Shown here: piece by piece, positions 954 to 51,812 of the stretch
Layout of the letters: every line of letters begins with the position of its first letter
Numbering within the stretch: the first letter of the stretch is position 1
NCBI RefSeq assembly: GCF_017348835.2
Contig: NZ_CP071375.1
Length of the DNA stretch: 64,000 nt
Strand: one strand, 5' to 3'
Source: Escherichia coli
Lineage (GTDB): Bacteria > Pseudomonadota > Gammaproteobacteria > Enterobacterales > Enterobacteriaceae
Made by a program: the position numbers and the translations under genes
Notes under the pieces: model-generated
What the model was told of the DNA's origin: nothing
Seen by the model: the letters and a program-made list of their open reading frames with translations, nothing else
Database searches by the model: none

Positions 954-1057
954 ACGTTCCTCCTTTATATGAACTCACCGGAGCAGGCTCCGGTGAGGTG
1001 TTGTGAACTTAAGTCTGGACGAAATGCCCGAAAACGAAAGTTTGAGGCGTAAAAAGC

Positions 1058-6767: not shown

Positions 6768-6978
6768 GCCTGATGCGCTACGCTCATCAAGCCTACAAAA
6801 TCTATTGCAACATGTTGAATCTTCGTGCGTTTGTAGGCCGGATAAGGCGTTCACGCCGCATCCGGCATTAGGTGCTCAATGCCTGATGCGCTACGCTTAT
6901 CAGGCCTACAAAATCTATTGCAACATGTTGAATCTTCATGCGTTTGTAGGCGGATAAGGCGTTTTCGCCACATCAGGT
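6768..6978. repeat. REP/BIME cluster (tandem repetitive extragenic palindromes)
   Basis: Two near-identical ~100-bp units containing gcctgatgcgctacgct and ggataaggcgtt...gccgcatccggc motifs typical of E. coli REP elements; coordinates approximate. Confidence 0.7.
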
Positions 6979-23387: not shown

Positions 23388-24274
23388 TGCCACTGCTGGA
23401 TAAGCTGCGTGAGCAGTACGGGGTCGGACCGGTATGCAGCGAACTGCATATTGCCCCGTCAACGTATTACCATTGTCAGCAACAGCGACATCATCCGGAT
23501 AAACGCAGTGCCCGTGCGCAGCACGATGACTGGCTGAAGAAAGAGATACAGCGCGTATACGATGAAAATCACCAGGTATACGGTGTGCGTAAAGTCTGGC
23601 GTCAGTTGTTACGGGAAGGTATCAGAGTGGCCAGATGCACTGTGGCACGTCTCATGGCAGTTATGGGACTTGCCGGTGTTCTCCGGGGTAAAAAGGTCCG
23701 CACTACCGTCAGCCGGAAAGCCGTTGCCGCATGCGACCGCGTAAACCGTCAGTTCGTGGCAGAACGTCCAGACCAGTTGTGGGTGGCTGATTTTACCTGG
23801 GTAAGCACATGGCAGGGCTTCGTTTATGTGGCGTTCATCATTGATGTGTTCGCCGGATACATCGTGGGATGGCAGGTCTCATCATCCATGGAAACAACAT
23901 TCGTGCTGGATGCACTGGAGCAGGCGTTGTGGGCCCGTCGGCCGTCCGGCACAATCCATCACAGTGATAAAGGTTCTCAGTATGTATCGCTGGCCTACAC
24001 GCAGCGGCTTAAGGAAGCCGGATTACTGGCATCAACAGGGAGTACTGGCGACTCGTATGACAACGCGATGGCTGAGAGCATCAATGGTCTTTACAAAGCG
24101 GAGGTAATACACCGTAAGAGCTGGAAAAACCGGACAGAAGTGGAACTGGCCACACTAACGTGGGTGGACTGGTATAACAATCGACGATTGCTGGAAAGGC
24201 TGGGCCATATTCCTCCGGCAGAAGCAGAAAAAGCTTATTATGCTTCCATCGGAAATAATGATCTGGCAGCCTGA
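23387..24274 (+). CDS. IS3-family transposase OrfB (DDE catalytic domain; normally expressed as OrfAB fusion by -1 frameshift)
   Basis: 295-aa ORF overlapping OrfA stop in -1 frame; DDE-type integrase-core features (…HSDKGSQYVS…); A-rich run ggaaaaaataatg at the overlap. Confidence 0.85.
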   Translation: MPLLDKLREQYGVGPVCSELHIAPSTYYHCQQQRHHPDKRSARAQHDDWLKKEIQRVYDENHQVYGVRKVWRQLLREGIRVARCTVARLMAVMGLAGVLRGKKVRTTVSRKAVAACDRVNRQFVAERPDQLWVADFTWVSTWQGFVYVAFIIDVFAGYIVGWQVSSSMETTFVLDALEQALWARRPSGTIHHSDKGSQYVSLAYTQRLKEAGLLASTGSTGDSYDNAMAESINGLYKAEVIHRKSWKNRTEVELATLTWVDWYNNRRLLERLGHIPPAEAEKAYYASIGNNDLAA

Positions 24275-43939: not shown

Positions 43940-44165
<226 letters not shown>

Positions 44166-48962: not shown

Positions 48963-49949
48963 ATGATACGTTTCGCTGTGATTGGTACGAACTGGATCAC
49001 TCGCCAGTTCGTCGAGGCCGCCCATGAGAGCGGTAAATACAAGTTAACCGCCGTTTATTCCCGCAGCCTTGAGCAGGCTCAGCACTTCGCCAATGATTTT
49101 TCTGTCGAGCATCTGTTTACCTCGCTGGAAGCGATGGCGGAAAGCGATGCCATTGACGCGGTGTATATTGCCAGCCCGAATTCCCTGCACTTTTCCCAGG
49201 CACAACTTTTCCTTAGTCACAAAATTCATGTGATTTGCGAGAAACCGCTGGCGTCGAATCTGGCGGAAGTGGATGCCGCCATTGCCTGTGCGCGGGAAAA
49301 TCAGGTGGTGCTGTTTGAGGCATTTAAAACAGCCAGCCTGCCGAACTTTCATTTGTTGCGCCAGGCGCTGCCGAAAGTAGGCAAACTGCGGAAAGTCTTT
49401 TTCAACTATTGCCAGTATTCCTCGCGGTATCAACGTTACCTGGATGGTGAGAATCCCAACACCTTTAATCCGGCATTCTCTAACGGTTCAATTATGGATA
49501 TCGGCTTTTACTGCTTGGCGTCGGCGGTAGCGTTATTTGGTGAGCCGAAAAGCGTGCAGGCAACCGCCAGTTTACTGGCAAGTGGTGTAGATGCCCATGG
49601 CGTGGTGGTGATGGATTACGGTGATTTCAGCGTCACCTTGCAGCACTCAAAGGTCAGTGATTCTGTCCTGGCAAGCGAGATTCAGGGCGAAGCGGGATCG
49701 CTGGTGATTGAAAAACTGTCTGAATGCCAGAAAGTGTGCTTCGTGCCGCGTGGCAGCCAGATGCAGGATCTCACCCAGCCGCAGCATATTAATACCATGC
49801 TCTACGAAGCAGAGCTGTTCGCTACCCTGGTGGATGAGCATCTGGTGGATCATCCAGGGCTGGCGGTCAGTCGCATCACAGCCAAACTGCTGACCGAGAT
49901 CCGCCGCCAGACTGGGGTGATTTTTCCGGCAGATAGCGTAAAACTATAA
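48963..49949 (+). CDS. ygjR: Gfo/Idh/MocA-family NAD(P)-dependent oxidoreductase
   Basis: Track ORF 48945..49949; start trimmed to MIRFAVIGTNWITRQF (328 aa); recognised as YgjR. Confidence 0.8.
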   Translation: MIRFAVIGTNWITRQFVEAAHESGKYKLTAVYSRSLEQAQHFANDFSVEHLFTSLEAMAESDAIDAVYIASPNSLHFSQAQLFLSHKIHVICEKPLASNLAEVDAAIACARENQVVLFEAFKTASLPNFHLLRQALPKVGKLRKVFFNYCQYSSRYQRYLDGENPNTFNPAFSNGSIMDIGFYCLASAVALFGEPKSVQATASLLASGVDAHGVVVMDYGDFSVTLQHSKVSDSVLASEIQGEAGSLVIEKLSECQKVCFVPRGSQMQDLTQPQHINTMLYEAELFATLVDEHLVDHPGLAVSRITAKLLTEIRRQTGVIFPADSVKL

Positions 49950-49999
49950 TTGCCAAAGTAAAACAGTGTAAAAGGTATGTAACAGACCATTGACTGACT

Positions 50000-50231
50000 G
50001 AATGGTCTGTCATACTTTGTTACCTGCAAAGGGGAGTAACTTCATTGCCGGTCGATCGTCATTACGATGTGTGAAAAACCACATCCGGTCACCGGGCAAC
50101 CCGAAAGGAATACGCAGACGTATTCCTTTTTTGTTGTAAGTGAGACCTTGCCGGAAGGCGAGGTCTATGCATAAAAAGCAGCGGCTGACGTCTTCCGACG
50201 TTGGCCGTTTTTTTATGTGTAAGGAACTTCT
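50000..50231 (+). promoter_or_regulatory. alx 5' leader: pH-responsive / yybP-ykoY-type (manganese) riboswitch region
   Basis: Long structured leader before alx with several hairpins (e.g. ggaatacgcagacgtattcc); the alx leader is an established riboswitch-type regulatory RNA in E. coli; exact boundaries not determinable by eye. Confidence 0.5.
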
Positions 50232-51197
50232 ATGAATACTGTCGGCACGCCGTTGCTATGGGGCGGATTCGCTGTTGTTGTCGCCATTATGCTGGCTATC
50301 GACCTGTTGTTGCAGGGGCGTCGTGGGGCACATGCCATGACCATGAAACAGGCTGCGGCCTGGTCGCTGGTCTGGGTGACGCTGTCGTTACTGTTTAATG
50401 CCGCTTTCTGGTGGTATTTAGTCCAGACTCAGGGATGCGAAGTCGCGGACCCGCAGGCACTGGCCTTTCTCACGGGTTATCTGATTGAGAAATCGCTGGC
50501 GGTCGATAACGTCTTTGTCTGGCTGATGTTGTTCAGCTATTTCTCCGTTCCGGCGGCATTACAACGTCGCGTGCTGGTGTATGGCGTGCTCGGGGCGATT
50601 GTTCTGCGTACCATCATGATCTTCACAGGCAGCTGGCTGATTTCGCAGTTCGACTGGATCCTGTATATCTTCGGTGCCTTCCTGCTGTTTACCGGCGTGA
50701 AGATGGCGCTCGCCCATGAAGATGAATCAGGCATTGGCGACAAGCCGCTGGTGCGCTGGCTACGCGGTCATTTGCGCATGACCGACACCATCGACAATGA
50801 GCATTTCTTTGTGCGTAAGAATGGATTGCTGTACGCCACACCGCTGATGCTGGTACTGATTCTGGTGGAATTGAGCGACGTGATTTTTGCCGTGGATAGC
50901 ATTCCGGCTATCTTCGCCGTGACCACTGACCCGTTCATTGTGCTGACCTCAAACCTGTTTGCGATCCTCGGCCTGCGTGCGATGTATTTCCTGCTGGCGG
51001 GCGTAGCAGAGCGTTTCTCGATGCTCAAATATGGCCTGGCGGTGATTCTGGTATTTATCGGTATCAAGATGCTGATTGTCGACTTCTACCATATTCCAAT
51101 CGCCGTCTCGCTGGGCGTGGTGTTTGGCATCCTGGTGATGACGTTTATTATCAACGCGTGGGTGAATTATCGGCATGATAAGCAGCGGGGAGAATGA
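50232..51197 (+). CDS. alx: TerC-family membrane protein (putative Mn exporter)
   Basis: 321-aa polytopic ORF; recognised as Alx (YgjT). Confidence 0.85.
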
Positions 51198-51812
51198 TTC
51201 GCTGTATATTAAGCCATTACTAGAGATAACTCATTCCAGACAAAGGTGAGCTATTAATTATGTAATCGGCTTATAGCTCTTTACAAAAAGACCGCACGGG
51301 TGTTGGTGGCGTCAAAATCGCCGAAGCGTTCCCTGGAGGCCGGGGCGACGCGCATGGATGCGCGGCGAGGGCGCATCTTACAGGGACGTTACCTTGCGCC
51401 CGACCCGGTAGCCGCAAGGGATAAGCTGAGGGAACCGCGCAGCGGCGATTTTGTTCGCCAGAGCCTGGGGGTGCAGGGGGCGGCGGCGATTGGCCGCCCC
51501 CTGCGCGCTCCCTGCGCCAGTGACTTTATATGGCATAGCACATTAAAGGAGCGCAACCGTTCTCATATTCCAAATAGTTTTGCCCATATGTTATCTAATC
51601 AGCCTTAGTAGCCAGTCCTTCCCTCTGTTTATGTCAAATAAATGTAACCATTAAGTTGCAAAACATGACCTCCCTTTAAAATCCAGCATTTTTCGCTTCC
51701 CGAAGCTGTAACTTTCCTTATACTCGACCTTGCAAACACTTTGTTACATCCTGAAAGATGCGTCGACAGAACGCACCAGGGATGTGCGACAACACAATGA
51801 AAGGATCGAAAA

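Follow-up and report, generated by a model that had tools for sequence, protein, structure and literature searches.

Riboswitches of the yybP-ykoY family are expected upstream of genes for metal-homeostasis membrane proteins (TerC, MntP, P-type ATPase), and Bacillus subtilis ykoY, like Escherichia coli alx, encodes a TerC-family protein. The transcriptional members of the family in Firmicutes (B. subtilis yybP and ykoY, L. lactis yoaB) resemble alx in being ON switches, in which P1.1 stabilized by Mn2+ prevents formation of an intrinsic terminator (PMC12153347). In these leaders the 3' strand of P1.1 competes directly with the terminator, whereas the alx leader uses a relay, with P1.1 set against P5 and P5 then set against stem C/D or P6. 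Occlusion of the ribosome-binding site (RBS), a second terminator inside the aptamer and sensitization to pH are further features of alx beyond those of the Firmicutes members.

The closest relative within E. coli is the mntP riboswitch, a canonical four-way junction represented by Rfam family RF00080. Common to mntP and alx are an L1 core, GGGGAGUA...GAGACC, lying between P1.1 and P1.2, and a P3 element built of a 10-bp helix, a one-sided loop of 7 nt and a second helix; both control an Mn2+ exporter and both act on translation (PMC12153347). Unlike alx, mntP possesses helix P2 and does not respond to pH; its L3 reads ACAUACU, and its short P4 lacks a terminator. Beyond the L1 core and the layout of P3, the two aptamers have little in common.

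The alx leader of E. coli K-12 goes in the literature by the names SraF and PRE and is described as a yybP-ykoY-type Mn2+ riboswitch (PMC9472077, PMC3874183, PMC10197570, PMC12153347, PMC12934788). Alkaline pH induces translational fusions 68-fold and Mn2+ 21-fold, and the PRE leader is required for this (PMC10197570). Mn2+ binding and the crystal structure PDB 9JGM, which shows a three-way junction whose L2 capping loop tunes pH sensitivity, are cited in PMC12934788. Element, ligand, fold and mechanism are thus already known and are not a discovery here: the identity, anatomy, conservation and covariation reported below come from the present analysis, and the Mn2+ and pH responses, termination efficiencies and three-dimensional fold from the literature. 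The DNA analyzed, hereafter the window, is a stretch of 64,000 nt from E. coli. Its positions 50025-50231 are almost certainly the 5' leader of the alx mRNA, i.e., the SraF / PRE / alx yybP-ykoY-type Mn2+ riboswitch, working as in the mechanism set out below.

Genomic context of the alx leader

Positions 49950-50300 of the window match the chromosome of E. coli XH990 at 100%, and 5419 of the 5426 complete E. coli genomes carry this region with at least 95% identity. The gene order around it is ygjQ-ygjR-alx-sstT, with the ygjR stop codon at 49949 and 282 nt from there to the alx ATG. Aptamer and leader lie directly upstream of alx on the same strand, an arrangement repeated in 72 orthologous loci. 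The preliminary description, made from the DNA letters, had named the downstream gene as alx of the TerC family; the product scores 181.8 bits against Pfam TerC (PF03741) and is named 'TerC family membrane protein Alx' in RefSeq and 'Mn(2+) exporter Alx' in the K-12 annotation, which agrees with that name and with the kind of metal-homeostasis gene expected for the family.

The K-12 leader is the same RNA at the same locus and in the same gene order; its numbering, L3, L2 capping loop, hairpins B, C and D, stem C/D and both terminators map exactly onto the window. Over 285 nt around the leader, two substitutions separate the two sequences: A in the window for G in K-12 at 49997, within both the promoter spacer and the loop of an inverted repeat, and C for A at 50079 (+55), in the apical loop of P3.2. 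The K-12 allele for which induction by Mn2+ and pH is reported (PMC10197570, PMC12934788) therefore differs from the leader RNA of the window at one loop base. This near-identity, the fit of the published residue numbering (below) and the literature support the earlier statement that this is a known regulatory RNA locus with riboswitch-type control.

Downstream, a 437-nt segment (51191-51627), starting 7 nt ahead of the alx stop codon, takes the place of 220 unrelated nt of K-12 and alters the C-terminus of Alx. About 1659 of 5426 E. coli genomes have the segment at this position, and the median number of places with related pieces is 3 per genome; it looks like a repeat family. Within it, 51301-51466 (+) matches the TwoAYGGAY family (RF01731) at 36.6 bits, below the gathering score of 43 (E = 2e-4); the loop of hairpin 1 is CAUGGAUG, loop 2 is degenerate (AGGGAC), and the fold has z = -3.2.

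Transcription start and promoter

The numbering was fixed with the help of 13 residues that papers on the alx riboswitch mention by name (A11, U17, U18, C19, A20, G23, U35, A37, A114, A115, A132, C135 and A137). All 13 fit when +1 is placed at 50025 and at no other offset, the next best accounting for 6 of 13. The leader is accordingly 207 nt long (50025-50231), with the alx ATG at +208 (Table 1). Of the interval 50000-50231 given in the preliminary description, 50025-50231 stands as leader; the first 25 nt (50000-50024) do not, since the published residues fit only +1 = 50025, and they hold promoter spacer, -10 box and discriminator.

The promoter is inferred to be TTGACT / TACTTT from conservation and the published numbering. 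Its -10 box ends 6 nt upstream of the inferred +1, lies 17 nt from the -35 box and reads TATTTT in most relatives. A simple sigma-70 scan called no plus-strand promoter at the alx leader, because the -10 box matches only 3 of 6 positions. Another -10 candidate, CATACT, with a 15-nt spacer, was dropped in favor of TACTTT with its 17-nt spacer.

A perfect 10-bp inverted repeat (49982-50010, ACAGACCATT / AATGGTCTGT with a 9-nt loop) surrounds the -35 box and stops just short of the -10 box. Across 69 distinct orthologues, pairing is kept in 65% of its cells, against 33-41% in slid controls, and 8 of the 10 pairs show compensatory changes. The repeat is probably the terminator hairpin of ygjR with the T-rich -10 region as its tail, in which case terminator and promoter overlap; alternatively, it could be a protein-binding site.

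Table 1. Features of the alx promoter, leader and gene in the window
Feature	Position	Strand	Basis or remark
Putative alx promoter -35 box TTGACT	49990-49995	+	TTG invariant, A nearly invariant in 71 orthologous upstream regions
Putative alx promoter -10 box TACTTT	50013-50018	+	T, A and T at positions 1, 2 and 6 of the hexamer invariant in 71 orthologues
alx leader transcription start (+1)	50025	+	Published residue numbering
Mn2+-sensing aptamer, alx-type three-way junction	50025-50152 (+1 to +128)	+	Match of covariance model R1; conserved pairing
P1.1 switch helix, 5' strand GCAAAGG	50026-50032	+	Pairs with 50146-50151; 6 pairs, 72/72 leaders
L1, 5' strand GGAGUA	50033-50038	+	Invariant in 72 leaders; includes A11 = 50035
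P1.2, 5' strand ACUU	50039-50042	+	Pairs with 50138-50141 (AAGU); 4 pairs, invariant, 100% paired
L2 capping loop CAUUG, in place of helix P2	50043-50047	+	5 nt between P1.2 and P3.1
P3.1, 5' strand	50048-50058	+	Pairs with 50086-50095; 10 pairs, 5 compensatory, 98.9% paired
L3 metal-binding loop UCAUUAC	50059-50065	+	A37 = 50061; published alx-type consensus (PMC12153347)
P3.2 hairpin GAUGUG / CACAUC, loop UGAAAAAC	50066-50085	+	4 of 5 counted pairs compensatory, 98.1% paired
P3.1, 3' strand	50086-50095	+	Pairs with 50048-50058
P4 helix	50096-50137	+	Base 50096-50100 with 50133-50137, where 3 of 5 pairs covary
Intrinsic terminator B, inner P4 hairpin plus U-tract	50103-50130 (hairpin)	+	Terminator scan
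3' strands of P1.2 (AAGU), L1 (GAGA) and P1.1 (CCUUGC)	50138-50151	+	GUAAGUGAGACCUUGCCG (+112 to +129) invariant in 72 leaders
P5 / hairpin C (OFF state)	50143-50166	+	RNAalifold and minimum free energy (MFE) fold; sequesters P1.1 3' strand
Stem C/D, 5' strand GGAAGGCG, ON-state antiterminator	50153-50160	+	Pairs with 50189-50196; 8 pairs, 99.3% paired
P6 / hairpin D intrinsic terminator	50180-50216	+	Stem-loop 50180-50209, U-tract to 50216; terminator scan
Stem C/D, 3' strand CGUCUUCC	50189-50196	+	Shared with P6 5' arm and loop
Shine-Dalgarno (SD) AAGGA (50221-50225) and spacer	50221-50231	+	OFF-state pairing with L1/P1.2 5' strand 50032-50042 in MFE fold
alx coding sequence	50232-51197	+	321 aa, TerC family; ORF list, Pfam, RefSeq annotation

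Aptamer architecture

The L1 core is of the yybP-ykoY type: GGGGAGUAAC at 50031-50040 and GUGAGACC at 50140-50147 are invariant in 72 leaders and align to the core of mntP. Within it, A11 is the cross-helix A-minor adenosine (PMC12153347), and the pairs U18-A114 and U17-A115 of the adjoining P1.2 are named in PMC12934788. P3, with 10 bp, a one-sided 7-nt L3 and at least 5 further bp, follows the consensus architecture of RF00080, with the sequence variant UCAUUAC in the loop and not ACAUACU. U35, C36, A37, A40 and C41 of L3 are invariant, and U38 and U39 nearly so, in the 72 leaders; A37 coordinates Mn2+, and the A37U mutant abolishes the response, including activation by pH (PMC12934788). None of the 72 leaders has room for a P2 helix between P1.2 and P3.1, where the spacing is constant. 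For the L2 loop at this position, closure by C19-G23 and a role in the pH response have been described (PMC12934788).

All four features by which an alx-type element is recognized from sequence are present: the position upstream of alx, L3 as UCAUUAC, the lack of P2, and hairpins C and D able to form stem C/D. As for the wider yybP-ykoY family, the leader has the L1 core (5' GGGGAGUA, 3' GAGAC), the P3/L3 layout and a metal-homeostasis gene downstream; it has no four-way junction with P2, a trait typical of every member whose structure was solved earlier, and stays under the 45-bit threshold of RF00080. Here P2 is treated as typical and not as defining, because the metal core is retained, and membership is based on the core features and the published experiments, not on Rfam.

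Conservation and covariation

The region 50000-50240 folds at -100.4 kcal/mol, compared with -63.6 +/- 4.7 kcal/mol for 200 dinucleotide shuffles (z = -7.88), none of which folds as well. This value, two terminator-like hairpins and the conserved structure described next bear out the earlier view that a long 5' leader with several hairpins precedes alx. For comparison, 80 loci encoding Alx relatives were collected, with one genome per species, from Enterobacteriaceae, Erwiniaceae, Yersiniaceae and Pectobacteriaceae, and an alignment (A1) spanning +1 to the ATG was made of the 72 distinct leaders of standard layout. Invariant or near-invariant blocks are GCAAAGGGGAGUAACUU (+2 to +18), CGUCA..ACG (L3 and its flanks), CCGGU and the 3' block GUAAGUGAGACCUUGCCG; the helices between them vary. 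This is the conservation pattern of a riboswitch.

Unguided RNAalifold recovered P3.1, P3.2, the base of P4, P5 and P6. The published ON structure, counted as P1.1, P1.2, P3.1, P3.2, the P4 base and stem C/D, has 99.2% of cells paired across the 72 leaders, with 15 of its 38 pairs changed on both sides; these values were reached by none of 500 shuffles, and sliding the partners by 1-3 columns left 32-45% paired. The OFF structure (P3, P4, P5 and P6) is paired in 96.3%, with 17 compensatory pairs. Compensatory changes fall in P3.1 (for example, G-C to A-U in 12 sequences), P3.2, P4, P6 (5 of 13 pairs) and stem C/D, where pair 214:262 changes from G-C to A-U in 11 sequences and pair 216:260 from A-U to U-A in 2. 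P1.1, P1.2 and L1 are invariant, and covariation is neutral on them because they never vary. No covariation was seen in P5 among the 72 leaders; its inner 6 pairs are paired in at least 98%, and its outer 4 are often broken.

Compensatory changes in five helices are hard to reconcile with unregulated hairpins, i.e., the ygjR terminator plus chance structure, however common terminator-like hairpins are between genes. A leader-peptide attenuator, for which open reading frames called mechanically at 50002-50139, 50067-50174 and 50140-50235 could be invoked, fares no better: the distance from L1 to the ATG ranges over 172-251 nt, in increments not divisible by three, and P4 over 13-64 nt, so no leader frame is conserved, and the RNA starts at 50025, downstream of the start codon of the first frame. 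Attenuation was rejected on the lack of conservation in length and frame, and we give next to no credence to either form of this explanation.

Expression platform and proposed mechanism

Downstream of the aptamer the strands are shared. CCUUGC (50146-50151), the 3' strand of P1.1, doubles as the 5' arm of P5; the P5 loop together with the 3' arm supplies the 5' strand of stem C/D, and the 3' strand of C/D coincides with the 5' arm and loop of P6; stem C/D itself has been described (PMC3874183, PMC12153347). A scan found two terminator-like hairpins with U-tracts, and their extents (+79 to +108 and +156 to +192) agree with the published products of about 108 and 190 nt, at which about 46% and 13% of complexes, respectively, terminate in vitro (PMC9472077). 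All 72 leaders contain the P6 hairpin motif, most of them with a T-rich tail. P4, in contrast to P6, is terminator-like in 17 of the 72 only.

In the published model, which the anatomy of the leader fits, L1 (GGAGUA / GAGA) and L3 (UCAUUAC, with A37) would form the metal site and P1.1 (GCAAAGG / CCUUGC) the switch helix. Without Mn2+, the 3' strand of P1.1 would be captured by P5 (C) and the terminator P6 (D) would form, while the freed 5' strand of L1/P1.2 would pair with the Shine-Dalgarno region; the predicted outcome is some termination at about +190 and read-through transcripts that are not translated. Binding of Mn2+, favored at alkaline pH, would hold P1.1 and P1.2 and block P5, the P5 loop and 3' strand would then pair with the 5' arm of P6 as stem C/D, the terminator would be disrupted, and the exposed RBS would allow the Mn2+ exporter Alx to be made. 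Folding would be under kinetic control during transcription, through pauses and the first terminator inside P4. The folding pathway and RBS occlusion are described in PMC12153347 and PMC3874183.

The MFE structure of +1 to +226 is the OFF state at -95.1 kcal/mol, with P5, an extended P6, and GGGAGU..CUU of L1/P1.2 paired to the SD region; the SD-occluding duplex in the window has -10.7 kcal/mol (z = -1.8). Enforcing the ON state (P1.1, P1.2 and C/D) gives -76.5 kcal/mol, a penalty of 18.6 kcal/mol, and the ON state therefore needs ligand-stabilized tertiary docking and co-transcriptional folding. The excess stability of OFF, which calls for kinetic control, also suits the original PRE model of a ligand-free pH element, in which pH alters RNA polymerase pausing at two sites and thereby redirects folding, with no role for Mn2+; so do the substitutions A132G, C135U and A137G near pause C, which shift pausing and raise expression with predicted stability unchanged (PMC3874183). 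The pauses are, however, shorter and not longer at alkaline pH (PMC9472077), the pH response requires Mn2+ binding (PMC12153347), A37U abolishes pH activation (PMC12934788), and an invariant L1/L3 metal core in 72 species is left unexplained. We therefore hold a purely ligand-free element to be very unlikely, and the pause-only pH model (PMC3874183) is now seen as describing folding kinetics, not the sensor.

The short products invite another reading, in which the main product of the locus is a trans-acting small RNA, SraF, ending at about +108 or +190 and regulating other genes, with control of alx secondary. SraF was first detected as an abundant small RNA, according to work as cited in PMC9472077, both terminators are active in vitro at the efficiencies given above, and P6 with its U-rich tail is conserved across the 72 leaders. 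Yet the conservation follows the logic of an aptamer and expression platform, not of a single-stranded seed, and the P4 terminator is absent in 55 of the 72 relatives. We know of no trans target of SraF. A role in trans would also be compatible with cis control of alx, and as the main function of the locus it appears highly improbable beside the Mn2+ riboswitch.

Covariance-model searches

The preliminary description had proposed an Rfam search for yybP-ykoY / PRE as a check, and had said that no Rfam hit together with no conserved structure would speak against it. With Rfam 15, six matches reached the gathering score in the window, none of them at the alx leader. RF00080 was absent from 49900-50300 both at its gathering score and at E of 10 or less; the nine matches returned by the permissive search of this interval (STnc370, STnc240, RydC and others, E = 0.33-5.7) are chance matches to terminator hairpins. 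The first half of that objection thus applies as worded, and the second clearly does not, given the compensatory pairs in the 72 leaders. Matches at gathering level elsewhere in the window include an ALIL pseudoknot (120 bits), an ES173 sRNA (99 bits) and three naRNA4/REP-type elements (listed at 23342-23458 (+); 992-1055 (-); 6836-6906, 17879-17955 and 43998-44079). The ALIL pseudoknot is a frameshift signal in insertion sequences of the IS3 family.

The miss is a sensitivity limit, i.e., a false negative. RF00080 gave nothing at gathering score in the K-12 alx leader or at 20 orthologous alx loci of other genera. As a control, the crystallized E. coli K-12 mntP riboswitch (L083:7462-7558) scored 41.6 bits (E = 6e-10), under the gathering score of 45; because the canonical mntP element also falls below it, absence from Rfam is not counted against the alx element. 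According to the literature, the alx aptamer is missed because it is a three-way junction without P2, has a divergent L3 and carries an intrinsic terminator inside P4 (PMC12153347, PMC12934788). The RefSeq records of XH990 and K-12 at alx, and of K-12 at mntP, carry no riboswitch feature at these loci.

A dedicated covariance model, R1, was built from 70 orthologous aptamers and comprises 116 positions and 31 pairs. Its search of the window returned a single match, the aptamer of Table 1, at 119.1 bits (E = 2e-28). On the mntP leader R1 gave no match with default filters, and with filters off 5.9 bits, from the outer L1 shell UUGGGGAGUAGCC...GGCGAGACC alone. In sequence, this shell is all that the alx and mntP aptamer types have in common.

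Altered leaders in related species

Several relatives carry altered alx leaders. In Escherichia albertii NBRC 107761 (L002:817-1121), the aptamer is split within P4 by an insertion of about 150 nt with REP-like palindromes; the P4 hairpin is partly duplicated, and the 5' portion of the aptamer, which R1 scores at 66 bits, is displaced about 130 nt upstream of its usual position. In Atlantibacter sp. RC6 (L023:1091-1115), the interior of the aptamer (P3, L3, P4 and the 3' strand of L1) is missing and GGGGAGTCACTTCCTTGCCGGAAGG is fused to P5/P6, apparently through deletion between direct repeats CCTTGCCG; A. hermannii (L029) keeps the full aptamer. Upstream of alx in Rouxiella aceris (L076), R1 found no match at E of 10 or less, and the P6 hairpin and its U-tract are kept just before alx. 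ERIC-like palindromic repeats of about 70-130 nt interrupt the leader in several genera, either inside P4 (L012, L035 and L081) or between P6 and the RBS (L028 and L037); in all five leaders the aptamer is still recognized by R1 at 58-100 bits.

Implications for annotation and for the riboswitch class

Two points are worth recording for this locus: the corrected coordinate of the leader (+1 = 50025) and the false-negative database check for the alx subclass. A usual covariance scan misses alx wholly and its sister mntP by 3.4 bits, and a dedicated three-way-junction alx model, which reaches 119 bits here, would close this annotation gap.

The comparison across relatives also separates the conserved parts of the published E. 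coli mechanism (the metal core, P3, the P4 base, P6 and stem C/D) from the P4 terminator and the SD-occluding duplex, which are not conserved. In most relatives this duplex is no better than in shuffles (median z = -0.5), so that its conservation is supported for E. coli and some relatives only, and the SD-sequestering step may be lineage-specific. A broader view, which we put forward tentatively and think possible but doubtful, is that the conserved ancestral output in Enterobacterales is a terminator/antiterminator switch between P6 and the covarying stem C/D, to which occlusion of the RBS by the L1 strand and the P4 terminator would be lineage-specific additions. If this is true, the label 'translational riboswitch' would fit E. 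coli, not the whole class.
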